DNA of 64,000 bases from Phyllobates terribilis (lineage: Eukaryota): NCBI RefSeq assembly GCF_046119375.1, contig NW_027363019.1, positions 310,001 through 374,000 on the forward strand. Direction: 5' to 3'. Within the stretch, counting starts at the first letter, position 1. Every line of letters starts with the position of its first letter. Position numbers and translations under genes: made by a program. This document shows positions 9,124 to 50,500 of this stretch, piece after piece. Below the pieces are notes generated by a model. That model ran no database searches, had not been told where the DNA came from, and saw only the letters and a list, made by a program, of their open reading frames with translations.

Positions 9124-9139
9124 AGGGCCAACCCCCAGG
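9099..9139 (+). promoter_or_regulatory. -1 ribosomal frameshift signal (slippery heptamer plus hairpin)
   Basis: T TTA AAC (9099-9105) in the gag frame, 8-nt spacer, stem CCTGGGG...CCCCAGG (9114-9139). pol is in the -1 frame. Conserved at 18698 and 60578. Confidence 0.8.
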
Positions 9140-12100
9140 AAAAAGATCACCAGGCCCATCGAACTGGCGCGACAAATATGTGGGAGGACGTCCAGTCTTG
9201 CCTGTGGTACTGGATGGCATCCCTATGAGTGCCCTACTGGACACCGGGTCACAGGTCACCACCATCCCGTACGTGCTCTTCAAGCAGTACTGGAATGACT
9301 CGGATATCACCCGCTATCCAGACGACGACTTGAGTATCATCGCCAGTAATGGTCAGCCCGTGCCACAGATCGGATTTAAAGAAATGACCATTAAAATCAG
9401 TAGAGTCGAACTGGCAGCACAGGGACTGATCATTGTAGACATTGACAAACACGAGAGTCACCCAAAGATAACTCTAGGAACTAATGTGATTGAAAATTGT
9501 CTTGCAGAGGTGATTTTCATTTTACAGCAGGTTGCCAAGAACGCCAGCTCCGGCCAGCAGTGAGTGCTCCAGAAAGAGATCCGGGCACTGATGCGACGGC
9601 AACAGGTGGAACTCTCCGGTGGTGAGATTGGTAGCGTAAGAATGTGTGACCCTTTCCCTATTGCCATGCCCCCGAAAAGTGAAATGATGATTTGGTGCCG
9701 GGCAGCTATTGGTCTGAGAGGTAGAGATTACCAGGCCATGGTAGAACCAGTCTACTCAGACAGTAGGCCCACCATTTTGACAGCACGGGGGGGTAGTTGA
9801 TGTACGCCACGGGAGGGTGCCCGTTCGTATAATAAATATCGGGAAAAGGGAAGTATACCTGCCCCGGTATGCTACGCTAGCCAAATTATATACTATCAAC
9901 CAAAATTCTATACAGTCTGTGGAACCCTTGCCTCCATCTCACCCGGAGGAAGGTAACGGCTCTACGAAAATAATGGAGGATTGGTGTCAGCAACTACATT
10001 TGGGTACTGACTCCACTCCCTCCCACCAGAAATAGGGAGTCTACCGGGTGGTTCGAGAGTACGAGAGAGTGTTTAGTAAACACCCGTTAGACTTCGGGCG
10101 AGTCAAGGGGGTAGAACACCACATCCCCACGGGAGACCATCCTCCCATAAAAGAGAGGTATCGACCCGTACCCCCTGCACACTACCAACACGCCAAGGGG
10201 ATGCTTAGAGACATGAAGGAGGCTGGGGTAATCAGGGATAGCTGTAGCCCCTGGGCAGCTCCACTAGTCTTGGTCAAAAAGAAAGACAACACCATGAGAA
10301 TGTGTGTAGATTACCGGAAAATTAACCGTATCACACACAAAGATGCGTACCCCTTACCAAGAATAGAGGAGTCTTTGGCTGCTTTAAAATCTGCTAACTT
10401 CTTCTCCACCTTGGATCTCACTAGCGGGTACTGGCAGGTTCCTGTAGCAGAGGCGGACCGGGAGAAGACCGCATTCACCACCCCGATGGGACTTAGCGAG
10501 TTTACCTGCATGCCGTTCGGACTCTGCAACGCACCAGGAACCTTCCAGCGATTGATGGAATGCTGTCTGGGACACCGAAACTTTGAGACGGTCCTGTTGT
10601 ACCTGGACGATGTCATCGTCTATTCCAAGACCTACGAGGACCACCTGAAACACCTGGCGGAAGTGTTCGAAGCTCTGGCAAGTTACGGCCTAAAGGTGAA
10701 ACCCTCCAAGTGTCACCTCCTGAAGCCAAAGGTGCAGTACCTGGGACACGTGGTGAGTGCTGACGGAGTGGCTCCCGACCCTGATAAGATCACCGCAATT
10801 AAGGAATGGCCAAGTCCCTCCAGCGTAAAGGAAGTGAGGCAGTTCCTCGGGTTGGTAGGCTACTACCGAAGGTTCATTCCCGGTTTCACCAAAAAGGCAG
10901 CTCCTATGCAGGACCTCCTGATAGGTCAGTCCAGGAAGGCCAAGAACCAGAAGCCACCCTTCAGATGGGAGAAGCGGGAAGAAGAGTCCTTCCGCCAGCT
11001 GAAGATGGCCCTCACGGGGGATGAAATCCTGGCGTACCCTGATTATAGCCAGCCCTTTATCCTCTACACCGACGCCAGTAACATCGGGCTAGGAGCCGTA
11101 CTGTCCCAGATCCAGCAGGGGAAGGAACGGGTAATTGCTTACGCCAGCCGAAAACTGCGACCCACCGAAAGAAACCCTGAGAATTACAACTCATTTAAGC
11201 TAGAGTTCCTGGCAGTGGTGTGGGCAGTCACCGAACGCTTTAAGCACTACCTCGCTGCTTCCTGGTTCACCGTGTACACGGATAACAACCCGTTGACACA
11301 CCTGGACACTGCAAGACTCGGTGCTCTAGAGCAGAGATGGATGGCCCGCTTGTCCAACTATGAGTTTACAATCAAATACCGGGCAGGACGCTCCAATACC
11401 AACGCGGACGCCCTGTCCAGGATGCCGAACCTACCGGACGTAGGGGAAGATTCAGAGGAACTGGAAGAAGTTGAACTCCCCGCGTTCCACCGTCATGGGA
11501 CTATCCAGTATTCCCACCGTGTAAGGAGTAAGCAATCCGCTACGTTCAACCCATTACCTCATTACAACTGGGCGGAGACGCAAGACAGTGACCCTGCCGT
11601 CCGACTGGTAAAGGAGATGCTGACTCGGCCAGATGCACACCTTGACCCAGACGCTCCGGAGGAAGCCAAGCAACTGTGGGCTGAGAAGAGTCAACTGTTC
11701 CTTTACAAGGGGAAGTTGTGCTGCAGAATGGTTAACTCCCGGACGCATGAACTAATCTGGCAAATAGTGGTGCCAAGAAGAGACGCAGCTATGGTGATGG
11801 AGGCATACCACGACGGAGCTGGGCACTTCGGATGGAAGAAGCTGGAGTTCCTGCTGCGCGGGCGGTTCCATTGGGTAGGCATGAGAGGAACCATCGAGAG
11901 GTGGTGCAGAGACTGTGGCCCATGCAACCTAAGAAGGAGGGACCGTGCCAGCCAGAAGACTCCCCTGCAGTCCATCATCACCAGACAGCCGTTGGAACTG
12001 GTAGCCTTGGATCATGTAAAACTGACCCCAAGCAGAAGTGGCTACGTCTACGCGTTAACCATCGTGGATCACTACTCCCGGTTCTTGGTTGTCGTCCCCG

Positions 12101-13236
12101 TCAAGGACTTAACGGCTCAAACAGCAGCTAGAGCCTTCCAGCAGCACTTCTGCCGTCCGCACGGATACCCGGAGCAGGTGCTGACGGACCAGAGGCCTGC
12201 CTTTGAAGCGGAAGTCTTCCAGGAGTTCTGCACCCTGTATGGCTGCCGGAAGATAACAACAACACCCTATCACCCGCAAACTAATGGACTTTGTGAGAAA
12301 ATGAACCAGGTGGTGATAGATCTTCTGAAAACGTTGCCCCTGGAAGAACGTAGTCTGTGGCCTGAAAAGCTGCCCGACCTGGTGGACCTATACAACCACA
12401 TCCCTGTAGGTTCCACCAACTGTACCCCGGCTTACCTAATGAGGGCAAGACCTGGTAAGCTTCCTGTTGATCTGGAGATGGGAGTCCTGACACCCGAGGA
12501 CACTTCACCAGAAGCAGACTGGGACACAGAGAGGCAGCAGCAGTACCGGAAAGTACAGGAGAGCGTGGAGCGAAGTCTCTGTCAAGCTAGGGAAAGACAA
12601 GAGAAAACTTACAACCAGTATGCTCCCGCTGTTCCCCTGGTGCCCGGAGAGCAGATCTTGAAGAGGAAAAGACGGCTCCACAAGTTGGACGACCAGTGGG
12701 AGAAGGACCCGTACACCGTACTGCCCTCAAGCCACGACAACCCAAAGATCTGTACAATCAGTAAAGACGGAGGGGAAACCACAGCCATTGTATCCCGGGA
12801 TCACCTGAAGAAGTGTCCCGAACAGCTACGGAACCCTGAAGAGGAACAAGAAGACCCTCGACCCGTAGAGGAAAGGGAAGATATGATTAGTACTGTGCTC
12901 GGAGACTTCCCTCGGTCTTGGACTCAAGTCAATGGTGCTGTTGTGGTACCCGTCCTCACGTTCCTCCAACCAGCATCCCAAGTGCCTACGGAGACACAGG
13001 TAGAGCTGGAAGAACAGCCGGTCCAGGAGGCAGAAGACCCCACACAAGCAGACCAGGAGAATCAACCCTCTGCTTATAGTGAGCCTGCCATACCCCTAGT
13101 GAGCCAAAGAGTCCGTAGACGGCTGCCCAGTTTACCCTTGACAGCTCCTATACCCTGTAGCTCAGGACCAGTCAGCCAGCTCCGTAGGTCCACTAGGGTC
13201 ACTAGAGGCCAGTTGCCCATACGGTGGAGGATCTAA
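9105..13236 (+). pseudogene. pol: Gypsy pol (PR-RT-RNaseH-IN) with three lesions upstream of RT
   Basis: LLDTGS protease; YLDD RT; YTDAS RNase H; HHCC and DDE integrase. TGA at 9561-9563, +1 G frameshift at 9787-9793 and TAG at 10033-10035 relative to G3. RT to IN is open from 10036 to 13236. Confidence 0.93.
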
Positions 13237-16120: not shown

Positions 16121-17768
16121 ATTCCAATAAACATTTAAAGCTGCTTAGATTAAAAAGGTTATTCCAAAAATCGTCATTTATTCCCTATGGGACTGTAGGG
16201 AATAGTCGGGGCTGTAATCTGACAGTCTTATAGACAATGAATAAAGTTGTGGTCTAGCATGTACACCTCCACTCCATTCACTACAGGGCTATGCAGAGCC
16301 TGGTTCCTGGGATCTAGGGACCCATTGTCTGGATTGCTAAGGGGGCCAGTGGTTGGACCCCAAACGATTAGTAAGTTTTATTATTGATATGGGACAACTA
16401 GGTTTTTTGGGAAAAACCCTTTAGTTTTGTAAGAGTCAAGGCTGTGTGGCACCCCAGAGGGTCTGGTTGCCACAGTGGTAGTAATACCATGTCTGGGAGC
16501 AAAACAGGGGGTTCCTGGTCAGGAACACAGTACCAGCAACACCTCCTGCCCCAGACCAGAAAGGGGAGGATCCTGCCCTTTATAACTGGGTCTGGAGGCG
16601 GGGTTAGAGCAGTCTAGTCTAGGCAGTCTAGTCTAGTGTGAGGAGTCGAGTGGGACACGCAGGAGCAAGAAGCCAGGGACTGGAGCTGGAGATAGCTCGT
16701 CCTGGACGGTTTACACAGAGGACTGGACACAGAAGTCTGAGGCTGTGGGGATTGCATACCCAGCAGCAGATACCGCAGGTCTCCTGGCCCCATCAGAAGC
16801 CCGGAGGCTCAGCCACACGAAAGGACCAATACCGCCACAGAGACGCGAGGAATACACAAGGCCCGAGTCGCCAGCCATACGGGTGAGCAGAGCACGTTAC
16901 ACTCAGGGACGTGGGCCACAACACGACTATAAGAGGGATAGACAAAGAGTACAGTCAGAACGGCAGGCCTACAACTCCACCTGGCCAGGAGGACTCTAGG
17001 ATTGCTCCCAGACTGATCAGGCCTTTATCACTAGCCGGTACTCCCGTTGGGGCCCATATAATTGCCAATAGTAAAGACCCTGGGACTGCACTGCAAAGAC
17101 TCCGTGTTGTCATTACTGATACCTTGTACTACTACCATCATCATCCACACACACTGCCCTGAAGCAACACTCTTCCTGTGGGGAGTTATACTACCCTGCT
17201 GCCAAACCATCAGCTTCAGAGGACTGTTCCGCACCGGCGGTCTCTATTGACTGCATTCCACAGGTGGCGTAGTCGGACATTATAAATAACCTATACATAA
17301 ATACGCCTTGGATTGACCACCTGGGTCATGGACCGGGTCACTGCCACGGTGACTACAACCCCCAGCATCTACAGGCCTGGCTCCAGGTACCCCACAGCCC
17401 AGGGGCGCGTCAACTTTGGTGTAGTCGGCAGGATTACGTGCCCACTACCACCCGGTACTGCGCGCCTTCAAGAACTGTGTTGCATACTGTGGTGAAGTTT
17501 TCCCGCCATTGCCGCTGTTTTCCCGCCATAGTCCGCCATTTTTGGGTCGCCGCTCGGGAAGAAGAGGGGCGGAACCGCTGGAAGCGCGCGAAGTCCAAAG
17601 CCCCGCCCCACGCACTGACGCAACGCCAGGTCCTGGAAGGAGCCCAGCGAGCGCTGACGTCAGACGCGTGCGCCGCCAGGTCCTCGACGGAGATCATCAC
17701 CTGCAGAACTGCGGCCTACGGAAGAAAAGAGAAGGAAGGTAGGCCACGGTTCACTAGGGGGGAGGAAG

Positions 17769-18743
17769 ACGCCCGATATAGAGGGAACTTCAACCACCGG
17801 CACGGCCGCTGCCACAGTAATGCCATTCACCATGCCTGACATACCGGGGGCAGCGTGGTTGCCCCAGTACTTAGGAGAGTCGCACACCCTGAGTGACTTC
17901 AAGGAGAGACTAAGCAGTTTATTTAAAGTATACCCCCTGTCCGAGGAGCAGAAAGTGAGCATCCTCACAGGCCAGTTGATTGGTGCAGCCCAGAGAGAAG
18001 TAAAATCCTGGTCAGCCAGGGAAAAAGGGACTGTGAAAGAGATACTGGCCCGTCTAAAGGACACTTTTGACACCCGTACTGCAGCAGAGATAAAGATGAA
18101 GTTTTATGGGTGCAAACAACGGGCACAGGACAGTGTACGGGACTATGCTTTAAACCTGCAGGAGGCGCTGAGGGCCATCAAACAGATAGACCCTGACAGT
18201 GTGCGTGATGAAAACAGACTATTAACTGAGCAATTTATTGAGGGCTTACTGTCCAGCGCCCACCGACCCCAGCTGCGCATAATGGCTCTGCAAAACCCTG
18301 ACTTGGACTTTGCTCAATTTAAGGACAGGGCCATCCGGGTGCTACGAGAACCAGCACCAGGTGGCGCTACAGCTCACCGGCGCCCAGCTATCACCTACCA
18401 CCAGGAGGTGGCACCCTTTTCCCTGGAGCCTGTAGGAGACAATGCCCCGTCTACAGACCTGCACCATCAGGTCCAAGAGCTGACTAAAAGTGTAGCTGCA
18501 CTAACCAAAACTGTGCAGTCCTTGCAGGTGCATCATAAAGGAAAGATCCAGTTGGCTTCCAGTCCGGAGGACGTCCCGTGGCGCCGACAGAAGAGGATTC
18601 CACCATCCAGAGGGAGGAACAGCGACCGCTATGACCAGGACGGACAACCCATCTGCCGCCGCTGCAACCAGCCAGAACATTATGCAAGGTACTGTCATTT
18701 AAACAAGCAAAACCTGGGGCAGAGGGCCAACTCCCAGGAGTAA
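17769..18743 (+). pseudogene. gag: Gypsy gag with the start codon mutated ATG>ACG; open from a downstream ATG at 17820
   Basis: GGAAGACG at the position of GGAAGATG in G3; in frame with the 307-aa ORF; knuckle degenerate (CRRCNQPEHYARYC). Confidence 0.75.
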
Positions 18744-19350
18744 GACCACCAGGCCCATCAAGCTGGCGAGACAAATATGTGTGAGGACGACCAGTCCTAC
18801 CTGTCGTGCTGGACGGCTTTCCAATGAGCGAGTTGCTGGACACTGGATCGCAGGTGACCGCCATCCCCTACATTCTTTTCAAACGGTACTGGACTGATTC
18901 GGACATTACCCGCTGTCCAGATGAACATTTGACTATTTATGCTAGCAATGGTCAACCCGTACCTCAGGTGGGGTACAAGGAAGTGACCATAAAGGTTGGC
19001 AAAGTCGAGCTGCCAGCACAAGGACTGATAATTGTCGACATTGATCGCCGAGAAAGTCATCCCATGATAACTTTAGGCAGTAATGTCATTGAAAATTGTC
19101 TTGCAGAAATAATTGCCTTGTTACAGCAGGTTGCGGAGACCGCCAGTTCCAGCCAGCAGCGGGTTCTACAGAGGGAGATCAGAGCCCTGATGAGAAGACA
19201 ACAGGTAGAACTGTCTGGTGGTGAGAAGAAGTGAAATGCTGATATGGTGCCGGGCAGCCATCGGTCTAAGGGGTAGAGATTACCAGGCCCTGGTAGAGCC
19301 CGTCTACTCTGACAGTAGGCCCACCATTTTGACAGCCAGGGGGGTGGTTG
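18704..19350 (+). pseudogene. pol: Gypsy protease region remnant
   Basis: LLDTGSQVT at ~18830; GGA>TGA at ~18783; ~46-nt deletion near 19225. Confidence 0.8.
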
Positions 19351-19898
19351 ATGTCGAGGGGCAGGTTGTAGACAAGGAATGTCTCAACCCGGTCAAGGAC
19401 CACGACCAAGAAGGCCCGGAGCTTAGGAGTGTAGCTCCACAGCAAATGGATCCCAGGGAGGATGCAGACGGAGCGGTGTACGCCACCTGTCCTCACCTCC
19501 TGATATTTTCAGAGGGAGTCCGGCTGCAAGAGGGGTACCGGCCCCCGACACCCGACCTTGCTACTCCACATCCTGGTCGGGAAAGCCCGGTAGGCCCTGA
19601 GGATCCCACCGGGTATCGGAGGGAGCGGAGCTGCCACCAGTGCCCTTTTTCTGAGAGGAGTTCAGAGGGAGACCCGGCCTATCTACACACACAGACAGGA
19701 AAGGATACGGTCTGTAGTTCAGGAACACTCTGGTGCGGGGTCCTGATTGAACGCTGGACTTACTCGGAGGTTGTCGGACCCCCGTTCCTGGTGGCCGCAG
19801 AACTCCGCGGGGAGCAGGGAGTCGCCTTCCTTCTGCCATCTCTTACGTGAGTAAAGCCTTGGAGTTTCACTTTTGTATTGAAGAACTGAAATAAATGA

Positions 19899-20760: not shown

Positions 20761-21208
20761 ATCATAAAATCACTAGTTTATAAAGGATTACACCTCGGAA
20801 GTAACATCATATGTAAAACAAAAAAATGGCTACCCAATAAAATTCTTTATGCATAAATCTCGTATAACATAATTCAAAAAATACATAAAACAAAACTATA
20901 TATAGTACAGACCAAAGGTTTGGACACACCTGCTCATTTATAGATTTTTATGTATTTTCATGGCTATGAAAATTGTACATTCACACTGAAGGCATCAAAA
21001 CTATGAATTAACACATGTGGAATTATATACTTAACAAAAAAGTGTGAAACAACTGAAAATATGTCTTATATTCTAGGTTCTTCACAGTAGCCACCTTTTG
21101 CTTTGTTGACTGCTTTGCACACTCTTAGCATTCTCTTGATGAGCTTCAAGAGGTAGTCACCGGAAATGGTCTTCCAACAATCTTGAAGGAGTTCCTAGAG
21201 ATGCTTAG

Positions 21209-24200
21209 TGTTATGCACACGCCCGGGCTAAGCGGCGTGTGCGTGTGATTGGTAGTGATTCCACTGGACCGTGCCGGAGAGTGAATGCCTGGAGGGGCGT
21301 GACTAAGTATTCACCCGATCCGACCAGGGTCGCACGACGGCATACGACGCCAGTGCACCAAGGAGGAACCGAGCAGAGGGACCAGGTGCTACTCCAGGAC
21401 AGACCCCGGACACGGCTGTTGACCCACACAGGGGAATACAGGAACAGGCTGGTAGGCTGGCACACAGACTGGTGGGTATAGGCAGGCACGACTGGTATGC
21501 AGGCAGGCGGGTATGCAGGCAGGGGGGTAAAGGCAAGCACAGCTAGAGTGCAGACAGGGAGGCACTAGCAGGTAGGAACACAGGCGGGATAGGACCCAGT
21601 ACACACCGGGACTCAGGAACAATACAGGCAGAGGGTTACAGGCAAGCACAGCTAGAGTGCAGACAAGGCTGAGCAGGGAGGACAGGGCTCTGTTCACACG
21701 GAACAGACAGGAAGGGAAAGACAGAGCCAGATACTCACACAGTACTTGCAGAGACAACAAGCAGGAGTTAGGTACGAGTTCAGACTCTGCAGAAAAAAGG
21801 AAGGGAACGGACATAGAGGCAAAACAGGTAAAGGATAGGAGAGAGTTCAGACTGGAACTGAGTGTACGGAGGAGACCGACACTGCAGAGGGATACAGGAG
21901 CGGGTCTGGGAATACGGCCCCCAGAGAGGCGGAACGAACAGGCAAGGAGCGTGTTCAGACAGGACAGACAAGAGAACACAGAAAGGAGTCAGTTCAGACA
22001 CGGGAGCTGATACCGCAAAGCAGGAGACATACAGGACTCAGTTCAGACACGGGAGCTGATACCGCAAAGCAGGAGACATACAGGACTCAGTTCAGACACG
22101 GGAGCTGATACCGCAAAGCAGGAGACATACAGGACACAGTTCAGACACGGGAGCTGATACCGCAAATCAGGAGACATACAGGACTCAGTTCAGACACGGG
22201 AACTGATACAAAAAGCAGGAGACAAGAGACGGGACCTGGCACCTTCAGAGTGCAAGCACACACTGAAGGAAACACTATGCTCAGGCAGGGATAGAAGGGA
22301 GCTGCTGAGCTATATACCAAGTGACAGACAGCAATAGGCTGAGGACGCACAAGGGGTGTGACCCACAGCAGGTACAAAAAGCAGGAAGTGATCGGGCGCC
22401 GCCCTTAAGCAGCAGAAACAGACACAAACAGACAGCATGGAGGGAAGCCAGAGAGACATTCTGGACAGGAGATCAAGTGCGCCCTCTTGCACAGTGGGAG
22501 ATGGACCACCATGCAAGGACGCCGCCAGGTATGTTACAGTACCTCCCCCCTTACGCCCCCTCTTCTTCAGGCCTGCCAGAATCTTCCGCAGGGAATTCGA
22601 GGGCCAGTCGTTCACTGGGTTGGAGGGGGACAGAGACTTAAGGGTAATCTCTGCTTCGAGGTACATCTTGTCAAGCTCACAGGAAGAAATAGACGGGTTA
22701 TCAGGTACATAATGAGGAAAAGTCACTGTCTCTTTGTTATCTGGTGATATCCCGGAGGATTCAGGAAACAACTGGAGGTCCTCCGCCGGGTCAGAAGAGT
22801 GCAGAGGCTCAGAGAAAACAACTGCTTCAGAGTACACTAGGTCGGACTCACTGGAGGAAGCAGGCGAGGTATCGGGTACGGAGTATAGGAAAGTCTCTGT
22901 CCATTCACCACCAGGTGGCACCCCGAAGGGTTCTGGAGACAGCTGGCGGACCTCCGCCTGGTCAGAGGGGTGTAGAGACTCACGGGTAACCTCTGCTTCA
23001 GAGTACACTAGGTCGGACTCACTGGAGGAAGCAGGCGAGGTATCGGGTACCGAGTATAGGAAAGTCTCTGTCCATTCACCACCAGGTGGCACCCCGAAGG
23101 GTTCTGGAGACAGCTGGCGGTCCTCCGCCTCGTCAGAGGGGTGTAGAGACTCACGGGTAACCTCTGCTTCAGAGTACACTAGGTCGGACTCACTGGACGA
23201 AGCAAGCGAGGTATCAGATCCAGGATATAGGAAAGTCTCTGTCCATTCACCACCAGGTGGCACCCCGAAGGATTCTGAACACAACTGGAGGTCCTCCGCC
23301 TGGTCGGAGGGGTGTAGAGACTCAGGAGTAACCTCTGCTTCGGAGTACACTAAGTTGGACTCACTGGACGAAGCGAGCGAGGTATCAGGTACAGAGTATA
23401 GGAGAGTCTCTGTCCTTTCGCTACCAGGTAGCACCCCGAAGGGTTCAGGAGACAACTGGAGGTCCTCCGCCTGGTCGGAGGGGTGTAGAGACTCGGAGGT
23501 AACTACCACTTTGGGGTACCCATTGTCAGGCTCACAGGACGAAGCGGACAAAGTATTGAGTACCGGGTGTAGAGAAGTCTCTCTCCATTTGTCATCGAGT
23601 GGAATCCCGGAGGGTTCAGGAGGCAACAGGGGATCCTCCGCCAGGTAGTAGAGGTGCACAGACTCTGAGGTAACCACAGCTTTGGAGCATCCTTGGACAT
23701 GCACACCGGTTAAAGAGAAAGAAGCATCTGATGCCGGGTGCAGGAAGTTCTCCTGTGTGGAGTCTGGATGGGCAGAAGTCTCTTCGGCCAGGAGAACTGG
23801 TGCACTACCCACGCACATTACCCATTGGGGTTTCTCCGGGATACAGGGAGATGAAGCTTCAGTAGGGACTTCAAGGTTGGGGTCAGGAGGTCTCAGGGAG
23901 GACAGACCCTGGCGTGACGGCTTGCCTCTAAGTCTAGCACGTCTGGACTGCCTCTTGAGGTTGAGAGAAGTATTCCGGAAAGCGTAGTCACCCTGTGAGG
24001 ATTCTGGGTGGGCAGTAGTCTCATTGGGCTGGAGGACTATTGCGCTACCCACACACATTACCCGTCGGGGCTGCTCCGGGATATTGGGAAGTGAAGCTTC
24101 AGCAGGGGCTTCAGAGTTAGGGTCCTCGAAGACCATACGAAAGGCCACCAGGAAGGCCTGCAGGTCAAGGATGACAGGATCCCATGCTTCCCATAGGGGG

Positions 24201-25857
24201 GTGACCCATTTCAAGGCATCACCCGCTAGGTAGTCAATCATAAAGGCCACTTTAGCCCAATCGGAAGGAAAATAGAGAGGGTAGGCCTTAAAGTGTAGCA
24301 TGCATTGCTCCACAAATGCACGACACTGTCTTGGATCCCCATAGTAACGTGGCGGATCCGCAGGAACGAGAGCTGATAGATCCATCTGGACGGGTGCGTA
24401 ATTCGCCTGGAACTCAGCTAAAGGGGGAAAAAAAATTATTTATTTATTTTAATGCATGTATTCGCTGGAAAAACTTCTCAAAGAGCGAAGGCCGTGGGGC
24501 TCAACGGGAACCATGGCCTGAGCATGCTGTTATGCACACGCCCGGGCTAAGCGGCGTGTGCGTGTGATTGGTAGTGATTCCACTGGACCGTGCCGGAGAG
24601 TGAATGCCTGGAGGGGCGTGACTAAGTATTCACCCGATCCGACCAGGGTCGCACGACGGCATACGACGCCAGTGCACCAAGGAGGAACCGAGCAGAGGGA
24701 CCAGGTGCTACTCCAGGACAGACCCCGGACACGGCTGTTGACCCACACAGGGGAATACAGGAACAGGCTGGTAGGCTGGCACACAGACTGGTGGGTATAG
24801 GCAGGCACGACTGGTATGCAGGCAGGCGGGTATGCAGGCAGGGGGGTAAAGGCAAGCACAGCTAGAGTGCAGACAGGGAGGCACTAGCAGGTAGGAACAC
24901 AGGCGGGATAGGACCCAGTACACACCGGGACTCAGGAACAATACAGGCAGAGGGTTACAGGCAAGCACAGCTAGAGTGCAGACAAGGCTGAGCAGGGAGG
25001 ACAGGGCTCTGTTCACACGGAACAGACAGGAAGGGAAAGACAGAGCCAGATACTCACACAGTACTTGCAGAGACAACAAGCAGGAGTTAGGTACGAGTTC
25101 AGACTCTGCAGAAAAAAGGAAGGGAACGGACATAGAGGCAAAACAGGTAAAGGATAGGAGAGAGTTCAGACTGGAACTGAGTGTACGGAGGAGACCGACA
25201 CTGCAGAGGGATACAGGAGCGGGTCTGGGAATACGGCCCCCAGAGAGGCGGAACGAACAGGCAAGGAGCGTGTTCAGACAGGACAGACAAGAGAACACAG
25301 AAAGGAGTCAGTTCAGACACGGGAGCTGATACCGCAAAGCAGGAGACATACAGGACTCAGTTCAGACACGGGAGCTGATACCGCAAAGCAGGAGACATAC
25401 AGGACTCAGTTCAGACACGGGAGCTGATACCGCAAAGCAGGAGACATACAGGACACAGTTCAGACACGGGAGCTGATACCGCAAAGCAGGAGACATACAG
25501 GACTCAGTTCAGACACGGGAACTGATACAAAAAGCAGGAGACAAGAGACGGGACCTGGCACCTTCAGAGTGCAAGCACACACTGAAGGAAACACTATGCT
25601 CAGGCAGGGATAGAAGGGAGCTGCTGAGCTATATACCAAGTGACAGACAGCAATAGGCTGAGGACGCACAAGGGGTGTGACCCACAGCAGGTACAAAAAG
25701 CAGGAAGTGATCGGGCGCCGCCCTTAAGCAGCAGAAACAGACACAAACAGACAGCATGGAGGGAAGCCAGAGAGACATTCTGGACAGGAGATCAAGTGCG
25801 CCCTCTTGCACAGTGGGAGATGGACCACCATGCAAGGACGCCGCCAGGTATGTTACA
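21209..25857 (-). mobile_element. Non-autonomous, pol-less (gag-only) LTR retroelement, copy A
   Basis: 1330-bp LTRs at 24528-25857 (5') and 21209-22538 (3'), TG...CA, only one substitution seen. 5-bp TSD CTTAG at 21204-21208 and 25858-25862. PPT at 22539-22565. Internal region of 1989 bp. Confidence 0.95.
22310..24385 (-). CDS. Gag-derived protein, 691 aa: LDOC1/RTL-like (DUF4939-type) capsid N-domain, 57-aa acidic repeats and a U3-encoded tail
   Basis: N-terminus PPRYYGDPRQCRAFVEQCMLHF...FPSDWAKVAFM..YLAGDAL.W..PLWE..DP...DL.AFL.AF..VF.DP is sushi/PEG10-type Gag. No MHR, CCHC or pol motif seen. Expression is unknown. Confidence 0.75.
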   Translation of the reverse strand: MDLSALVPADPPRYYGDPRQCRAFVEQCMLHFKAYPLYFPSDWAKVAFMIDYLAGDALKWVTPLWEAWDPVILDLQAFLVAFRMVFEDPNSEAPAEASLPNIPEQPRRVMCVGSAIVLQPNETTAHPESSQGDYAFRNTSLNLKRQSRRARLRGKPSRQGLSSLRPPDPNLEVPTEASSPCIPEKPQWVMCVGSAPVLLAEETSAHPDSTQENFLHPASDASFSLTGVHVQGCSKAVVTSESVHLYYLAEDPLLPPEPSGIPLDDKWRETSLHPVLNTLSASSCEPDNGYPKVVVTSESLHPSDQAEDLQLSPEPFGVLPGSERTETLLYSVPDTSLASSSESNLVYSEAEVTPESLHPSDQAEDLQLCSESFGVPPGGEWTETFLYPGSDTSLASSSESDLVYSEAEVTRESLHPSDEAEDRQLSPEPFGVPPGGEWTETFLYSVPDTSPASSSESDLVYSEAEVTRESLHPSDQAEVRQLSPEPFGVPPGGEWTETFLYSVPDTSPASSSESDLVYSEAVVFSEPLHSSDPAEDLQLFPESSGISPDNKETVTFPHYVPDNPSISSCELDKMYLEAEITLKSLSPSNPVNDWPSNSLRKILAGLKKRGRKGGGTVTYLAASLHGGPSPTVQEGALDLLSRMSLWLPSMLSVCVCFCCLRAAPDHFLLFVPAVGHTPCASSAYCCLSLGI

Positions 25858-27384
25858 CTTAGCACTTGTTGGCCCTTTTGCCTTCACTCTGCGGTCCAGC
25901 TCACCCCAAACCATCTCGATTGGGGTCAGGTCTGGTGACTGTGGAGGCCAGGTCATCTGGCATAGCACCCCATCACTCTCCCTCTTGGTCAATTAGCCCT
26001 TACACAGCCTGGAGGTGTGTTTGGGGTCATTGTCCTGTTGAAAAATAAATGATCGTCCAACTAAACGCAAACCGGATGGAATAGCATGTCACTGCAAGAT
26101 GCTGTGGTAGCCATGCTGGTTCAGTATGCCTTCAATTTTGAATAAATCCCCAACAGTGTCACCAGCAAAGCACCCCCACACCTTCACACCTCCTCCTCCA
26201 TGCTTCACAGTGGGAACCAGGCATGTAGAGTCCATCCGTTCACCTTTTCTGCGTCGCACAAAGACACGGTGGTTGGAACCAAAGATCTCAAATTTGGACT
26301 CATCAGACCAAAGAACAGATTTCCACTGGTCTAATGTCCATTACTTGTGTTCTTTAGCACAAACAAGTCTCTTCTGCTTGTTGCCTGTCCTTAGCAGTGG
26401 TTTCCTAGCAGCTATTTTACCATGAAGGCCTGCTGCACAAAGTCTCCTCTTAACAGTTGTTGAAGAGATGTGTCTGCTGCTAGAACTTTGTGTGGCATTG
26501 ACCTGGTCTCTAATCTGAGCTGCTGTTAACCTGCGATTTCTGAGGCTGGTGACTCGGATAAACTTATCCTCAGAAGCAGAGGTGACTCTTGGTCTTCCTT
26601 TCCTGGGGCTGTCCTCATGTAAGCCAGTTTCTTTGTAGCGCTTGATGGTTTTTGCAGCTGCACTTGGGGACACTTTCAAAGTTTGCCCAATTTTTCGCAC
26701 TGACTGGCCTTCATTTCTTAAAGTAATGATGGCCACTCATTTTTCTTTACTTAGCTGCTTTTTTCTTGCCAGAATACAAATTCTAACAGTCTATTCGGTA
26801 GGACTATCAGCTGTGTATCCATCTGACTTCTGCACAACACAACTGATGGTCCCAACCCCATTTATAAGGCAAGAAATCCCACTTATTAAACCTGACAGGG
26901 CACACCTGTGAAGTGAAAACCATTTCCGGTGACTGCCACTTGAAGCTCATCAAGAGAATGCCAAGAGTGTGCAAAGAAGACATCAAAGCAAAAGGTGGCT
27001 ACTTTGAAGAACCTAGAATATAAGACATATTTTCAGTTGTTTCACAGTTTTTTTGTTAAGTATATAATTCCACATGTGTTAATTCATAGTTTTGATGCCT
27101 TCAGTGTGAAGGTACAATTTTCATAGTCATGAAAATACAGAAAAATCTTTAAATGAGAAGGTGTGTCCAAACTTTTGGTCTGTACTGTATATTTTTTATA
27201 TTATTCACAGCAACATAGACATTATTGCATTAAATACAATTAATCAAAGCTATATTGATGAATCATATACTATTATACAGAAAGTTTTTTTCCTTAGAAT
27301 ATAATAGTGCATCAAATCTATTCTATTAGTTCTTTTTAAATTAATCCTCCTCTATTAGATAAAATTTCATATAATGCCATAAGT

Positions 27385-40119: not shown

Positions 40120-40365
40120 CTGTAGGGATGAAAGATAGAAAAAAAATCACATCTAATCTACAACACAAAAGGGATTTCTATTCTAAATGTATTTTCTGGA
40201 TCTCACAATAAAGACCCTCGTCAGTGAAAGTACCGGTAATAAGGAAGACAACTACATGCCATAACATTAACACAATGACGGGTAAAGTGAATGACACTTA
40301 TAAACTGGTGACATTGGCACAAGTCAGGGGTACCAGAGATTAGACAGCAAATAGACAGTTCTTAA

Positions 40366-42370: not shown

Positions 42371-44182
42371 TTACTTGGTCTATATGCAGCTGAACCTACT
42401 GCACATGTGATACATCCGCCCCTGCCCAAAACACTAAATATATGTCCTTAAAAATTATGTTTAAAGGGAAACTGTCCGTTCCCTGTGCCCCCAGAACCCG
42501 CAGCAGTTGTGTCTGCAGATATAAACTCTCCGCCTAACATCTCTATTACATTAAACACACAAACAGATGTTTAGAAAAAGTATTGTATTTCTAAAGTTTA
42601 TGATATGTAAATGAGGCCTTTGACTTGTCGATGAGGCGTTCGTGACCCCAGAGCAGTCGCCCCACTTAGCATGTCATCACGGCTTTGGGGGCTTGAGAAC
42701 ATGACAAACCTACCGCATGCGCGCGGCTTCTCCTCCTCACTGCATTGAGCCTCTGACGCCGGGTGTACGCGTCCCATTACTGAGATAGGAGAGGACGGTC
42801 ACTGCTGGTCAGAGTCCATGTAGATGGGAGGAGCTCGGCCTCTAGCCCCGCCCTCCTCTCCCCTCCCCCTACAAAGAATCTTATCAGGAGCGGCCGTCAC
42901 CTCCGATCTCAGTGATGGAACAATGTTTCCTAATTGAATAGAGATTTTACCCCGGAACCGAGAATCCTGAGACGGAATAAGAAATACGCAGATTTCTGTG
43001 GAGACTCCGGGGACAAAGTTTCCTATTTCCATCTCGTCTATTCTTACAATTCATGAAGTTTATTCCTCTTATTCTTGTGTAATAAAGACTGATCAGGACG
43101 TTGTGTATATTATATGGGAACAATGAGGAATACTGTCACCATGTAACAATACATCGCTTATGGTTTATGGCCGCCAGGATTTGGTAACACAAAAATGTCT
43201 GAAAAGAAACAAAGTATTTATTGTAGAAAAGTCCTAAAAGAAAATGAAATAAATATATTGTTATTGGCTTGGATTAGTTGTATTACCGCAGTTACAGAGA
43301 CCCTCCACCCCGGGACTGAACACTACACATTTCCCTATACAGTCCCCTATGGGGTCCTCTGCCCTCCGCTGCCCCCTCAGATCGGTGGTCCCTTCCCCCG
43401 GCTTCCAGGGCGGCCAGTGCAGTGGTATGGGGAGTGCAGTAATACGTCTACCCCACCCTCCCCTGCCTTTCCTGTGCTGTGACCTATGGGGCAGCGCCAC
43501 ATCCTATTAATCTCCCAGCAGTCTGCGGGGCGTCACCAGTTACAGATGTATTCTGCACCTGCTTTCATTGCTCCTGTTTGTTTTTGGTAACCTTGTCTGG
43601 CTTCCATAATACCCCGGGATGACTTAGGCCTCCATCTACAGGACCATTCTTACTCGGCTTCCTGATTCTGACCTCGTCCCGCTTCTTGATTGTCTAGCAC
43701 CTGCCATCTTTAGGTCTGATCTGACATGTCGACCTTCTTCTGCCAGCTCGCTCTACCAGCCAGCACTACTATGTGGAGCCGCCCCGGTGTCTGTGCTGTA
43801 AGTCCAGATCACTGTACAGTGGTGAAAAGATGGAAGCCGGGAAACCTCTGGGACCGGCTGTATGGAGACTGTCTGTAAGCGCCTTATTATTAGGACCTGC
43901 CAGGTTTCCTCCATCGGTTCACTGTTACAGGAGGCAAATGGAGGACACAAGGAAGGGAGTTGTAACATACCTGGCGGCGTCCTTGCATGGTGGTCCATCT
44001 CCCACTGTGCAAGAGAGCGCACTTGATCTCCTGTCCAGAATGTCTCTCTGGCTTCCCTCCATGCTGTCTGTTTGTGTCTGTCTCTGCTGCTTAAGGGCGG
44101 CGCCCGATCACTTCCTGCTTTTTGTACCTGCTGTGGGTCACGCCCCTTGTGCGTCCTCAGCCTATTGCTGTCTGACACTTGG

Positions 44183-44222
44183 TATATAGCTCAGCAGCTC
44201 CCTTCTATCCCTGCCTGAGCAT
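44183..44222 (+). promoter_or_regulatory. LTR TATA box and predicted transcript 5' end, complementary to the PBS position
   Basis: TATATA at 44183-44188; GCCTGAGCAT at 44213-44222 is the reverse complement of ATGCTCAGGC at 45729-45738, just after the 5' LTR. Confidence 0.7.
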
Positions 44223-45865
44223 AGTGTTTCCTTCAGTGTGTGCTTGCACTCTGAAGGTGCCAGGTCCCGTCTTTGTTTCCTTGTCTGCCTTTCCTGGAGG
44301 CTGTATTTCCAGGCCTGTCTGAACTTAGTCCTGTATGTCTCCTGCTTTGCGGTATCAGCTCCCGTGTCTGAACTGTGTCCTGTATGTCTCCTGCTTTGCG
44401 GTATCAGCTCCCGTGTCTGAACTGACTCCTGTATGTCTCCTGCTTTGCGGTATTAGTTCCCGTGTCTGAACTGAGTCCTGTATGTCTCCTGCTTTGCGGT
44501 ATTAGTTCCCGTGTCTGAACTGAGTCCTGTATGTCTCCTGCTTTGCGGTATCAGCTCCCGTGTCTGAACTGAGTCCTGTATGTCTCCTGCGTTGCGGTAT
44601 TAGTTCCCGTGTCTGAACTGAGTCCTTTCTGTGTTCTCTTGTCTGTCCCGTCTGAACACGCTCCTAGCCTGTTCCTCCCGCCTTCTAGGGGCCGATTACC
44701 TAGACCCGCTCCTGTATCTTGTCTGTCCTGTCTGAACACGCTCCTTGCCTGTTCGTCCCGCCTCTCTGGGGGCAGTATTCCCAGACCCGCTCCTGTATCC
44801 CGCTGCAGTGTCGGTCTCCTCCGTACACTCAGTTCCAGTCTGAACTCTCTCCTATCCTTTACCTGTTTTGCCTCTATGTCCGTTCCCTTCCTTTTTCTGC
44901 AGAGTCTGAACTCGTACCTAACTCCTGCCTGTTGTCTCTGTACTCCCGTTTGTGAGTTTGTGGTCCACTCGCTACTTCACTGCAAGTACCCTGTGGGTGT
45001 CTGGCTCTGTCTTTCCCTTCCTGTCTGTTCCGTGTGAACAGAGTCCTGTCCTGCCCTGCTTCTGCCCGCTGCTCCGGCAGTCCTGTCCTGCCCTGCTTCT
45101 GCCCACTGCTCCGGCAGTCCTGTCCTGCCCTGCTTCTGCCCGCTGCTCCGGCAGTCCAGTCCTGCCCTGCTTCTGCCCGCTGCTCCGGCAGTCCTGTCCT
45201 GCCCTGCCTGTACCCCTCTGCCTGTAATGTTCCTGAGTCCCAGTGTGTACTGGGCCCTATCCCGCCTGTGTTCCTACCTGCTAGTGCCTCCCTGTCTGCA
45301 CTCTAGCTGTGCTTGCCTGTAACCCTCTGCCTGTATTGTTCCTGAGTCCCGGTGTGTACTGGGTCCTATCCCGCCTGTGTTCCTACCTGCTAGTGCCTCC
45401 CTGTCTGCACTCTAGCTGTGCTTGCCTTTACCCCCCTGCCTGCATACCCGCCTGCCTGCATACCAGTCTGTGTGCCAGCCTACCAGCCTGTTCCTGTATT
45501 CCCCTGTGTGGGTCAACAGCCGTGTCCGGGGTCTGTCCTGGAGTAGCACCTGGTCCCTCTGCTCGGTTCCTCCTTGGTGCACTGGCGTCGTATGCCGTCG
45601 TGCGACCCTGGTCGGATCGGGTGAATACTTAGTCACGCCCCTCCAGGCATTCACTCTCCGGCACGGTCCAGTGGAATCACTACCAATCACACGCACACGC
45701 CGCTTAGCCCGGGCGTGTGCATAACAGCATGCTCAGGCCATGGTTTCCGTTGAGCCCCACGGCCTTCGCTCTTTGAGAAGTTTTTCCAGCGAATACATGC
45801 ATTAAAATAAATAAATAAATTTTTTTTCCCTTAGCTGAGTTCCAGGCGAATTAAGCACCGTCCAG

Positions 45866-47599
45866 ATGGATCTATCAGCTCTCGTTCCTGCGGATCCGCC
45901 ACGTTACTATGGGGATCCAAGACAGTGTCGTGCATTTGTGGAGCAATGCATGCTACACTTTAAGGCCTACCCTCTTTATTTTCCTTCCGATTGGGCTAAA
46001 GTGGCCTTTATGATGTCTTACCTGGCGGGTGATGCCTTGGAATGGATCAACCCCCTATATGAAACACAGGATCCGATCCTCCGGGACCTAATGGCCTTCC
46101 TGGTGGCCTTTCTAATGGTCTTCGATGATCCTAACCCGGAGGCTCCTGCTGAAGCTTCACTTCCCAATATCCCGGAGCAGCCCCAATGGGTAATGTGTGT
46201 GGGTAGCGCAATAGTCCTCCAGCCCAATGAGACTACTGCCCACCCAGAATCCTCACAGGGTGACTACGCTTTCCGGAATACTTCTCTCAACCTCAAGAGG
46301 CAGTCCAGACGTGCTAGACTTAGAGGCAAGCCGTCACGCCAGGGTCTGTCCTCCCTGAGACCTCCTGACCCCAACCTTGAAGTCCCTACTGAAGCTTCAT
46401 CTCCCTGTATCCCGGAGAAACCCCAATGGGTAATGTGCGTGTGTAGTGCACCAGTTCTCCTGCCCGAAGAGACTTCTGCCCATCCAGACTCCACACAGGA
46501 GAACTTCCTGCACCCGGCATCAGTTGCTTCTCTCTCTTTAACCGGTGTGCATGTCCAAGGATGCTCCAAAGCTGTGGTTACCTCAGAGTCTGTGCACCTC
46601 TACTACCTGGCGGAGGATCCCCTGTTGCCTCCAGAATCCTCCGGGATACCTCTCGATGACAAATGGAGAGAGACTTCTCTACACCCGGTACTCAATACTT
46701 TGTCCGCTTCGTCCTGTGAGCCTGACAATGGGTACCCCAAAGTGGTAGTTACCCCCGAGTCTCTACACCCCTCCGACCAGGCGGAGGATCTCCAGTTGTC
46801 TCCTGAACCCTTCGGGGTGCTACCTGGTAGCGAAAGGACAGAGACTCTCCTATACTCTGTACCTGATACCTCGCTCGCTTCGTCCAGTGAGTCCAACCTA
46901 GTGTACTCCGAAGCAGAGGTTACTCCCGAGTCTCTACACCCCTCCGACCAGGCGGAGGACCTCCAGTTGTGTTCAGAACCCTTTGGGGTGCCACCTGGTG
47001 GTGAAAGGACAGAGACTCTCCTATACTCTGTACCTGATACCTCGCTCGCTTCGTCCAGTGAGTCCAACCTAGTGTACTCCGAAGCAGAGGTTACTCCCAA
47101 GTCTCTACACCCCTCCGACCAGGCGGAGGACCTCCAGTTGTGTTCAGAACCCTTCGGGGTGCCACCTGGTGGTGAATGGACAGAGACTTTCCTATACTCG
47201 GTACCCGATACCTCGCCTGCTTCCTCCAGTGAGTCCGACCTAATGTACCTCGAAGCAGAGATTACCCTCAAGTCTCTGTCCCCCTCCAACCCAGTGAACG
47301 ACTGGTCCTCGAATTCCCTGCGGAAGATTCTGGCAGGCCTGAAGAAGAGGGGGCGTAAGGGGGGAGGTACTGTAACATACCTGGCGGCGTCCTTGCATGG
47401 TGGTCCATCTCCCACTGTGCAAGAGAGCGCACTTGATCTCCTGTCCAGAATGTCTCTCTGGCTTCCCTCCATGCTGTCTGTTTGTGTCTGTCTCTGCTGC
47501 TTAAGGGCGGCGCCCGATCACTTCCTGCTTTTTGTACCTGCTGTGGGTCACGCCCCTTGTGCGTCCTCAGCCTATTGCTGTCTGACACTTGGTATATAG
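45866..47599 (+). CDS. Gag-derived protein, 577 aa (copy B; two fewer 57-aa repeats than copy A)
   Basis: Intact ORF; 691-577 = 114 = 2 x 57; the stop TAG overlaps the U3 TATA box of the 3' LTR. Confidence 0.75.
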   Translation: MDLSALVPADPPRYYGDPRQCRAFVEQCMLHFKAYPLYFPSDWAKVAFMMSYLAGDALEWINPLYETQDPILRDLMAFLVAFLMVFDDPNPEAPAEASLPNIPEQPQWVMCVGSAIVLQPNETTAHPESSQGDYAFRNTSLNLKRQSRRARLRGKPSRQGLSSLRPPDPNLEVPTEASSPCIPEKPQWVMCVCSAPVLLPEETSAHPDSTQENFLHPASVASLSLTGVHVQGCSKAVVTSESVHLYYLAEDPLLPPESSGIPLDDKWRETSLHPVLNTLSASSCEPDNGYPKVVVTPESLHPSDQAEDLQLSPEPFGVLPGSERTETLLYSVPDTSLASSSESNLVYSEAEVTPESLHPSDQAEDLQLCSEPFGVPPGGERTETLLYSVPDTSLASSSESNLVYSEAEVTPKSLHPSDQAEDLQLCSEPFGVPPGGEWTETFLYSVPDTSPASSSESDLMYLEAEITLKSLSPSNPVNDWSSNSLRKILAGLKKRGRKGGGTVTYLAASLHGGPSPTVQESALDLLSRMSLWLPSMLSVCVCLCCLRAAPDHFLLFVPAVGHAPCASSAYCCLTLGI

Positions 47600-50500
47600 C
47601 TCAGCAGCTCCCTTCTATCCCTGCCTGAGCATAGTGTTTCCTTCAGTGTGTGCTTGCACTCTGAAGGTGCCAGGTCCCGTCTTTGTTTCCTTGTCTGCCT
47701 TTCCTGGAGGCTGTATTTCCAGGCCTGTCTGAACTTAGTCCTGTATGTCTCCTGCTTTGCGGTATCAGCTCCCGTGTCTGAACTGTGTCCTGTATGTCTC
47801 CTGCTTTGCGGTATCAGCTCCCGTGTCTGAACTGACTCCTGTATGTCTCCTGCTTTGCGGTATTAGTTCCCGTGTCTGAACTGAGTCCTGTATGTCTCCT
47901 GCTTTGCGGTATTAGTTCCCGTGTCTGAACTGAGTCCTGTATGTCTCCTGCTTTGCGGTATCAGCTCCCGTGTCTGAACTGAGTCCTGTATGTCTCCTGC
48001 TTTGCGGTATTAGTTCCCGTGTCTGAACTGAGTCCTTTCTGTGTTCTCTTGTCTGTCCCGTCTGAACACGCTCCTAGCCTGTTCCTCCCGCCTTCTAGGG
48101 GCCGATTACCTAGACCCGCTCCTGTATCTTGTCTGTCCTGTCTGAACACGCTCCTTGCCTGTTCGTCCCGCCTCTCTGGGGGCAGTATTCCCAGACCCGC
48201 TCCTGTATCCCGCTGCAGTGTCGGTCTCCTCCGTACACTCAGTTCCAGTCTGAACTCTCTCCTATCCTTTACCTGTTTTGCCTCTATGTCCGTTCCCTTC
48301 CTTTTTCTGCAGAGTCTGAACTCGTACCTAACTCCTGCCTGTTGTCTCTGTACTCCCGTTTGTGAGTTTGTGGTCCACTCGCTACTTCACTGCAAGTACC
48401 CTGTGGGTGTCTGGCTCTGTCTTTCCCTTCCTGTCTGTTCCGTGTGAACAGAGTCCTGTCCTGCCCTGCTTCTGCCCGCTGCTCCGGCAGTCCTGTCCTG
48501 CCCTGCTTCTGCCCGCTGCTCCGGCAGTCCTGTCCTGCCCTGCTTCTGCCCGCTGCTCCGGCAGTCCAGTCCTGCCCTGCTTCTGCCCGCTGCTCCGGCA
48601 GTCCTGTCCTGCCCTGCCTGTACCCCTCTGCCTGTAATGTTCCTGAGTCCCAGTGTGTACTGGGCCCTATCCCGCCTGTGTTCCTACCTGCTAGTGCCTC
48701 CCTGTCTGCACTCTAGCTGTGCTTGCCTGTAACCCTCTGCCTGTATTGTTCCTGAGTCCCGGTGTGTACTGGGTCCTATCCCGCCTGTGTTCCTATCTGC
48801 TAGTGCCTCCCTGTCTGCACTCTAGCTGTGCTTGCCTTTACCCCCCTGCCTGCATACCCGCCTGCCTGCATACCAGTCTGTGTGCCAGCCTACCAGCCTG
48901 TTCCTGTATTCCCCTGTGTGGGTCAACAGCCGTGTCCGGGGTCTGTCCTGGAGTAGCACCTGGTCCCTCTGCTCGGTTCCTCCTTGGTGCACTGGCGTCG
49001 TATGCCGTCGTGCGACCCTGGTCGGATCGGGTGAATACTTAGTCACGCCCCTCCAGGCATTCACTCTCCGGCACGGTCCAGTGGAATCACTACCAATCAC
49101 ACGCACACGCCGCTTAGCCCGGGCGTGTGCATAACAGGAGTCTATATATGATAACCGTATAGTCACTTCTCAGTCTCAGGGTGGACGGTCGTTTTATCAC
49201 TCAACTTGTGCAGCTCATGAAGAGAGAAAAATTCTAAAAAATAACAGCAGAATAAAGATGATAAAGTAACAAGATGAGAAATACAACTCATCCCCCACAA
49301 AAAAGCTCCTCATACAGCGAGGTCAGTAATGAGAAATAAACGATCAAGAATGGAAGAAACAATCCAACAGAGGCCGGACAGACATCTGTCTGAGATGGTG
49401 AGTCCTGCATTGAGCAGGGGGCTGGATACGGGGACCCTGGAGGTGGTCCCCTCCAACCAGAACATTCTAGGATTGTAAGTTGTTTGGTCATTTTATCTGT
49501 AAATCATTTCCCCCATTATCGGCCTTACAGATACATTATTTTATTGATTTTTTTACTTTCTCGTCCTCTCATTTCCGGAGTCATAATGTTATTGGTCACT
49601 AAGCTGTGCAGTTCTTCTGCTATTCACCCTATAAATGTAAGAAAATACTGACAACTGGGCGTTACCATTGTTCCCCTACATTGTCCAATCAGCGCTGAGT
49701 GTCAGAAGTGTGGGGACACATGTATGGAGAACGGTGACACCCGGTTATCATGTCATTCATAAATGTCGGAGGAACGGCCGGGAATCTGAGCAGCAGTTTC
49801 TTTCTTTGGTAACAATTCTTGTCGGAAAAAGAATTTCATCCAATTTATTGGTAAAAAAACAAAAACAAAAAAACTTAAAACTTTCGGAACCTGGATGAGG
49901 ACGTCTTCTTACCTTCTTTTGGTAATTTATATATTTTACTGTTGGAAAGAGAATTATTTATTCACGTTAGAGGCTCAGATGGGGGGACGATTCCTAGACG
50001 ACATCTTGTTTGTCTGGAGAGACCGAGAGTGAAGATTCTTCTAAAGGGACGTTCCCAAAATCACAATGTGCTCTTATAATAAAGTACACCCTGGTTATTG
50101 TGAATATAACCCCTGTATAACATCTGGCCTCTCCTGCACATATCACCCCCTGAGTATGCCCCCCAGGATCTATATACCCAGCAGTTGTCATTGTAACCAA
50201 TACATACCGAGGAGCCACATGTTATACACTGGGGGGTGGGACAGGGCTGGATGTTATACACCGGGGGGACAACAGGGCCTGAAGGAGAAGCCAGAATGCA
50301 GTGATTAATGCGGGTGGCCCAATACTATTCTCCATATAGTGAATCTCTCCATATTACAAGATTCACCATAAATGAGACGCTGACAGGGGATATAATCCGT
50401 GCATGGTGAAGGGCGCCCCCTCTGGGTAGTATTTAGTCTCCATGTTTATACGTTGATTGAACCAGAACTCAAAAACCAACATGATGTCAGATAACGACAA

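Follow-up and report, generated by a model that had tools for sequence, protein, structure and literature searches.

A pol-less long terminal repeat element of Phyllobates terribilis that retains a capsid N-lobe under purifying selection

Within a 64,000-nucleotide window of Phyllobates terribilis DNA (assembly GCF_046119375.1, contig NW_027363019.1, positions 310,001 to 374,000), we analyzed a long terminal repeat (LTR) element, A (21209..25857, minus strand), together with a second insertion, B (43961..49136, plus strand). Both belong to a young, recently spreading family of thousands of copies, which is a non-autonomous derivative of a Tf1/sushi-type chromovirus and encodes a single protein, made of the N-terminal lobe (N-lobe) of a capsid and a long, unstructured, repeat-bearing tail. 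In inherited changes, the N-lobe is under purifying selection (dN/dS ratio, omega, 0.31-0.42), and the replicating lineage maintains an open frame. A non-autonomous LTR element with a selected half-capsid is a new variant, for which we propose a mechanism. No mobile element keeping only the N-lobe was found in the literature searched, most subscription papers being outside its reach, and the family may already bear a Repbase or Dfam name.

Copy number, age and selection

The first-pass annotation of the window had described two pol-less insertions with near-identical LTRs, different target site duplications (TSDs) and one open reading frame (ORF) each, which we confirm. Namely, the LTRs of A differ at 1 of 1330 positions and those of B at 3 of 1766, A lies between copies of CTTAG (21204-21208 and 25858-25862) and B between copies of GGAGT (43956-43960 and 49137-49141), and the ORFs encode 691 and 577 amino acids (aa). 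The marks of a gag-only element, i.e. two LTRs, a TSD, a single gag-derived ORF, no pol and recent mobility, are all present. In the host genome of 10.6 Gb, exact matches number 7,413 for a 20-mer from the ORF and 5,582 for an LTR/primer-site 18-mer, both counts being possibly inflated by unplaced contigs and duplicates. A nucleotide search with the 5' interior of A gave no candidates, but such a search passes over very common words and thus carries no weight here. Over 34 pairs, LTR divergence has a median of 0.22%, a mean of 0.44% and a maximum of 2.0%, with four pairs identical. Copy number and LTR divergence, as well as the parent family discussed below, support the earlier view of a recently spreading parasite of a chromovirus-type helper.

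How intact are these copies? All 21 interiors scored from 20 top-hit loci are open, as are the two in the window. Because such a sample is biased, the first 71 matches on contig C1 were taken as a sample, and 57 of these are open (52 as far as the polypurine tract, or PPT, and 5 until the fetched DNA ends; one has GTG as its first codon), while the other 14 stop early, each at a different codon. The distance from ATG to PPT is a multiple of three in 61 of 65 copies and ranges from 458 to 783 codons, never shorter. What is more, the first 109 Mb of C1 contain 75 primer-site junctions, every one of which continues into the ORF (judged by position for 69, by direct reading for 6), and no ORF-less subfamily was seen among them. 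Near-identical interior sequence, with LTR depth well above interior depth, was also present in contigs of four sequencing runs labelled as three organisms, which carry no information on expression. Some copies form head-to-tail arrays sharing LTRs (LTR-interior-LTR-interior-LTR, with up to four interiors; L009-L010, L019, L121 and 86.49-86.50 Mb of C1). Pairs with the same TSD lie far apart on one contig (B and L001; L018 and L019), reflecting segmental duplication or assembly redundancy; since the twin of B, L001, is on the same contig and bears an identical TSD, some copies are segmental duplicates.

We compared 67 copies of the young family (three double-lobe copies and one tandem twin were dropped), taking changes common to three or more copies as inherited. 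Private changes are neutral (omega 1.19 over 292 codons, with 4 stops), and most open frames therefore reflect youth. In particular, with copies that differ by only about 0.2% and private mutations that are neutral, the two open frames in the window are weak evidence. In the N-lobe, inherited changes comprise 29 nonsynonymous and 23 synonymous ones (omega 0.42), versus 35 and 8 among private changes (omega 1.47; p=0.009), and between the old and the young family omega is 0.31. Within the young family, inherited changes reveal hardly any constraint on residues 91-292 (omega 0.83, p=0.36). Four copies with two in-frame N-lobes, which are 61-70% identical, give omega of 0.43-0.56 (p 0.01-0.07), although they have common ancestry and are not independent. 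These tandem, diverged lobes define a subfamily (L125, L131, L143, L245), and single-lobe haplotypes look like mosaics or recombinants between its two lobes.

Moreover, a rough pooled count gives no inherited stop in approximately 338 inherited changes, versus approximately 7 expected, and the probability of such a stop-free history is about 0.0006. The leader, which is rich in homopolymer runs, is free in length, with 16, 26 and 28 copies in the three phases. In the old family, where 27 of 32 copies were used (four without an N-lobe after the primer site and one twin were dropped), the shared in-register indels were 3 nt; we did not treat as inherited a 16-nt gap that occurs twice where the fetched DNA ends, nor four stops seen in two copies. 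In this sense, the earlier suggestion that the ORF is being kept open is correct for the replicating lineage, and dN/dS gives a divided answer, with the private changes neutral and the inherited N-lobe constrained. The further suggestion, that of a live intermediate in RTL-type domestication, is unsupported for typical copies because of the 14 broken ones among 71 and the neutrality of private changes. Domesticated RTL/Mart genes are fixed, immobile loci that have lost their LTRs, whereas here thousands of LTR-flanked young copies decay neutrally; a rare fixed locus was not sought.

Ancestry, protein and origin of the tail

The site that follows the 5' LTR is complementary over 10 bp to a site about 30 nt past a TATA-like box, close to the putative transcript start, and both sides of this self-priming pair co-vary across five families of this genome (young, old, parent and two others). 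A 10-nt pair of this kind, replacing the tRNA site, is a signal of Tf1/sushi elements (PMC6317226). With these chromoviruses the family also shares TG...CA LTRs, a 5-bp TSD and a sushi-type N-lobe, but it has no enzymes, C-terminal lobe (C-lobe) or knuckle, and is non-autonomous.

A full gag-pol family in the same genome is, to judge by its sequence, the parent lineage. A pattern joining N-lobe and C-lobe occurs at 9,512 places in the genome, and at all 30 fetched loci the N-lobe is 39-53% identical to that of our family. Full parent copies encode gag, protease (PR), reverse transcriptase (RT), RNase H (RH), integrase (IN) and a chromodomain, and have in common with the young element a 110-nt U5 segment, the PPT and the last pol codons. 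Among ten parent copies picked for long pol frames, at least four retain, in addition, a gag frame of 352 codons, and their LTRs have diverged by 1.1-5.0%, which makes them older than most young-family copies; the PPT-sharing parent subfamily is more decayed, none of 20 copies having both gag and pol frames long. A different sushi family (L021-L025), with LTRs 99.5-100% identical, is as young as ours and has gag and pol in a single frame of 1499 codons, unlike the two-frame parent family. A closer autonomous donor, sought as the helix motif of the family followed by the C-lobe motif, gave 0 matches at one fixed spacing. 

The only Pfam match of the A and B proteins is DUF4939 (approximately aa 10-86, E 1e-6 to 1e-7), which we take to include RTL8 and LDOC1 as well; LDOC1 has an acidic tail. 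No Pfam family match to PR, RT, RH, IN or CCHC was found in the two proteins, and a profile built from close helper C-lobes matched neither. Having no C-lobe match and no CCHC, they are therefore not full-length Gag, with both lobes and an RNA-binding end. AlphaFold predicts a confident helical bundle for the N-lobe (pLDDT 87), whose best structural matches are Ty3/Gypsy-type capsid lobes: dArc1 41-134 (VIA Z 9.0, root-mean-square deviation 7.3, 87 residues aligned), the Ty3 N-terminal domain (Z 7.4, deviation 2.6, 74 aligned) and also the PNMA2 N-lobe. Z values of 7-9 are modest taken alone, and because C-lobes score alike in structure comparison, the identity of the N-lobe rests on its position in Gag. 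That said, the model, the structure matches and the identity to the parent family together support the original assignment to a sushi/PEG10-type capsid N-lobe.

As for more distant relatives, Foldseek gave no match at E<=0.001, with capsid lobes heading the list, a PDB sequence search with the family protein gave nothing relevant, and a whole-protein search of a large protein database gave no match. The closest named proteins are from frogs. When an eight-member family profile was compared with 1.84 billion representatives, the best 150 matches all ran through the N-lobe only; of the 95 relatives with at least 120 residues past the N-lobe, 14 had no C-lobe match, and none carried a repeat tail like that of the family. 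Gene models of Dendrobates tinctorius (P0007-P0009) combine a sushi-type N-lobe, knuckle, protease and integrase with no C-lobe, and may be artefacts of spliced gene models.

Where does the tail come from? An older sister family (primer-site pattern matched at 1,568 places; LTR divergence 3-7% in three readable pairs), whose ORF starts as in the young family, has a single frame collinear with the parent Gag and Pol (E 5e-47). It runs through a conserved N-lobe, a shortened and eroded C-lobe, a broken knuckle, a protease without catalytic motif and the start of RT, and then through repeats into an eroded chromodomain. Because of this collinear alignment in one frame, the tail is home-grown from the element's own gag-pol and is not an imported acidic domain. 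The chromodomain remnant has 41-48% identity over 63-67 codons in two old-family copies, and 17 codons of it are left in A, while the young family has lost the stretch from knuckle to RT and expanded a 57-residue unit, the source of which could not be traced with confidence. The C-lobe, in turn, has been eroded in place rather than cleanly deleted, a refinement of its reported absence. In part of the older family the upstream ORF from the ancestral gag start codon is in frame with the main one, and the longest frames among old copies, present in two of them, end short of the PPT, at 605 and 681 codons. One old-family 3' LTR, at L221, has grown to approximately 3.8 kb by a short internal tandem repeat.

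Layout of the two insertions and their surroundings

Element A is read on the minus strand throughout. Its 5' LTR (24528..25857) has TG...CA ends and internal 49-bp and 16-bp tandem repeats, and its 3' LTR is at 21209..22538. The TATA-like box (25635-25629) and the 10-nt self-priming site (25605-25596) together span 25596..25635 and would mark the 5' end of the transcript, while the U5 segment of about 110 nt (24611..24724), with 71-84% identity to the parent family, could be a recognition signal. The primer-binding site (24514..24527), 10 nt of which are complementary to the self-priming site, is followed by a 21-aa upstream ORF from the ancestral gag start codon (24449..24514) and by a T-rich, splice-acceptor-like tract (24418..24435), the terminal YAG of which is present in 70 of 70 leaders. 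The 691-aa ORF (22310..24385) has its last 75 or so codons inside the 3' LTR and contains the N-lobe (aa 1-90; 24116..24385), the C-lobe remnant (aa 91-170; 23876..24115), aligned with the helper Gag by way of the older family, an array of 5.5 S/E/D/P-rich units of 171 bp, or 57 aa (22751..23682), and the last helix of the chromodomain remnant with the PPT (22539..22600). The other five frames over this ORF have 13-51 stops each.

Element B, on the plus strand, has a 5' LTR at 43961..45726, with the self-priming site at 44213-44222, a primer-binding site at 45727..45740, the 577-aa ORF at 45866..47599 and a 3' LTR at 47371..49136. Its N-lobe is 84% identical to that of A, and it has two repeat units fewer; indeed, two 171-bp units, together with 3 nt of leader, make up the difference between the interiors of 1989 nt (A) and 1644 nt (B). 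Among those positional-sample copies that are open to the PPT and have a recorded stop position, the ORF ends between 14 nt before the LTR and 430 nt into it. Given that the stop moves between copies, we rejected a role for the Cys-rich end encoded in the 3' LTR as a membrane anchor.

In the leader, RNA folding is no better than in shuffles (z -0.27), and contigs of the four sequencing runs, which are uninformative on expression, contain no splice joint at the acceptor-like site. Just past the upstream ORF, a repeated AATAAA in the young family (24433-24452, minus strand) is a possible early polyadenylation signal; this hexamer is absent from the LTR of A.

As to the surroundings, A is apparently inserted in a Tc1-like DNA transposon (flanks 20900-21208 and 25858-26200, judged by eye). 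Three related Gypsy elements of another clade (8143-13236, 17658-19850 and 59616-63637) have a PNMA-like gag with CCHC, and two of them long pol frames; they are unrelated to the sushi-type element. A 644-codon open frame with approximately 19 C2H2 zinc fingers (38243-40177, minus strand) places A and B in or near a zinc-finger gene region, and a 36-bp minisatellite of 35 copies (41104-42370) is open in several frames.

Proposed mechanism, alternatives and known systems

Our tentative preference is for hitchhiking in cis, in which the nascent N-lobe would dock into helper capsids and bring along its own mRNA. In particular, the N-lobe would already be folded, and would dock into an assembling helper capsid, before the ribosome has finished the long tail; the mRNA of the element itself would thereby enter the particle and serve as template for the enzymes of the helper. 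The tail would serve as a tether, which needs to be open and long, but not specific in sequence. A cis benefit is the simplest selfish account, because selection is on replicating lineages and not on residents, the N-lobe is kept, the tail is open and long, and no ORF-less subfamily was seen. Theory links selection in the replicating lineage, as opposed to resident copies, to private (cis) benefit (PMC13558583), and RTL8, an N-lobe-only protein, is described as binding the PEG10 N-lobe and entering PEG10 particles (PMC11684626). Docking of the N-lobe into the parent-family capsid is weakly predicted: a complex with four parent-family capsid domains scores 0.41, versus 0.01 for the best control, with runs agreeing in at least 79% of contacts and a partner pLDDT of 76. 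In calibration, 51 of 78 solved complexes reached the mark, as did 2 of 108 mismatches, and scores of 0.60 or below took in only 5 of the 78 solved complexes and all 4 passing mismatches of 180; likeness to solved capsids may perhaps explain the score. The fuller claim, that this is an LTR parasite hijacking helper capsids co-translationally, with a half-capsid on a nascent tether pulling its own mRNA into the helper particle, strikes us as possible but doubtful.

That said, a number of observations weigh against hitchhiking. The young family's ORF is cut off from the ancestral start codon, which opens only a 19-31-aa upstream ORF in 69 of 70 leaders, and it sits behind a leader of approximately 1.1 kb with further ATGs; its transcription and translation are putative. 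An acceptor-like site follows the primer site and precedes the ORF start, and if the ORF were read from spliced RNA without the primer site, cis action would fail. In the candidate helpers, the N-lobe is just 39-53% (parent family) or 36% (1499-codon-frame family) identical to that of our family. In the tests of selection, the C-lobe remnant has an omega of 0.39 between the old and young families, and constraint is therefore not strictly confined to the N-lobe; the shared omega of 0.36 in the old-family N-lobe is not significantly under the private one (p=0.17), and A versus B alone gives no significant constraint on the N-lobe (omega 0.73, p=0.31). What is more, RTL8 and the free PEG10 N-lobe are reported to inhibit particle release (PMC11684626), yeast Ty1 Gag is reported to have no cis preference (PMC3945221), and mini-Ty1 elements are described as moving without any gene product (PMC4974528).

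Would the data look different if only translation mattered? Ribosomes reaching the end of the interior could spare the RNA nonsense-mediated decay or direct it to sites of assembly, the protein being a by-product. This would suit a tail that is free in sequence but not in frame, open copies whose stops fall at the PPT or slightly inside the 3' LTR, and an older family that keeps gag and pol remnants in one frame. However, it leaves the N-lobe omega of 0.3-0.4, the preserved fold and the in-frame doubling of the lobe unexplained, and we regard it as unlikely. We think even less of a poison or modulator of the capsid that acts in trans, as RTL8 or Ty1 p22 do, and whose bulky acidic tail in the helper lattice would lower helper output or copy number. 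Such a poison would hurt the element's own copying and invite ORF-less cheaters, 0 of which appeared among the 75 junctions, and the family is abundant, all this despite the precedent of RTL8, the weak docking prediction, the low expression expected from the upstream ORF and a possible spliced RNA, and parent copies that look older than the young family. Of the capsid poisoning or hijacking that the first-pass annotation had offered, it is hijacking, in the form of hitchhiking, that we prefer; poisoning would be less likely because the element depends on helper particles.

Comparably improbable is host selection for the protein, in defence or development, at a small number of source loci that also seed the new copies. 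Zebrafish Bik-1 is described as a mobile gag-only element with a Gag needed in development (PMC12067270), the pol-less Xenopus 1a11 and xretpos are reported to be expressed in embryos (PMC4585706), and host selection on source lineages would give an identical result in the tests used here. Yet resident copies decay neutrally, several subfamilies turned over in succession, and no old intact copy stood out, even the longest old frames being interrupted. We place least weight on there being no current function, with the low omega inherited through gene conversion with an autonomous gag or produced by constraint on the RNA: single-lobe haplotypes are mosaics and some pairwise tests are not significant, but the search for a gag with the family's helix motif followed by the C-lobe motif came back empty at its one fixed spacing, the excess is of synonymous change, which RNA constraint does not favor, and the stop-free history would be very improbable.

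Plants, fish, chicken and Xenopus all have known gag-only LTR elements without pol (PMC8704663, PMC12067270, PMC4585706). TR-GAG elements of plants are likewise described as having one gag-derived ORF and transposing with a helper, although that of Arabidopsis has a full-length Gag and a copia parent (PMC8704663), whereas the half capsid of our family cannot be expected to assemble alone. Among vertebrates, zebrafish BHIKHARI (Bik-1/2), chicken ENS-1 and the Xenopus elements 1a11 and xretpos have LTRs and one gag-like ORF each but no pol; Bik-1 and ENS-1 are described as recently mobile, and the copy numbers reported for these elements are in the tens to hundreds, compared with more than 7,000 here (PMC12067270, PMC4585706). 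By its description, Bik-1 differs from our family in having a coiled coil together with a whole capsid domain, and is retroviral. RTL8 also has a sushi-derived N-lobe and no C-lobe, but is a trans-acting inhibitor of 113 aa (PMC11684626). Both RTL8 and LDOC1/RTL7 differ from our family in being fixed host genes without LTRs, and the likeness would be one of convergent architecture, not orthology. By analogy only, Alu, through SRP9/14, has its non-autonomous RNA reach the LINE-1 machinery at the ribosome (PMC13558583); Alu, however, is a non-LTR element, encodes no protein and uses a host factor.

Non-autonomous LTR elements are usually held to need either RNA signals only or a whole Gag, while this family retains half a capsid under selection across successive waves of spread, and its autonomous parent, older intermediate and young form coexist in one genome. 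At approximately 4.5-5 kb each, its more than 7,000 copies add an estimated 30 Mb to a very large genome. If hitchhiking is true, the family would be the LTR analogue, based on a protein, of the trick that Alu plays at the ribosome, and selfish selection within a mobile element could produce and refine an architecture like that of RTL8 and LDOC1 ahead of any host domestication. The family thus offers one system for two questions, namely whether proteins of LTR elements can favor their own RNA, and how truncated capsid genes such as RTL8 and LDOC1 originate.

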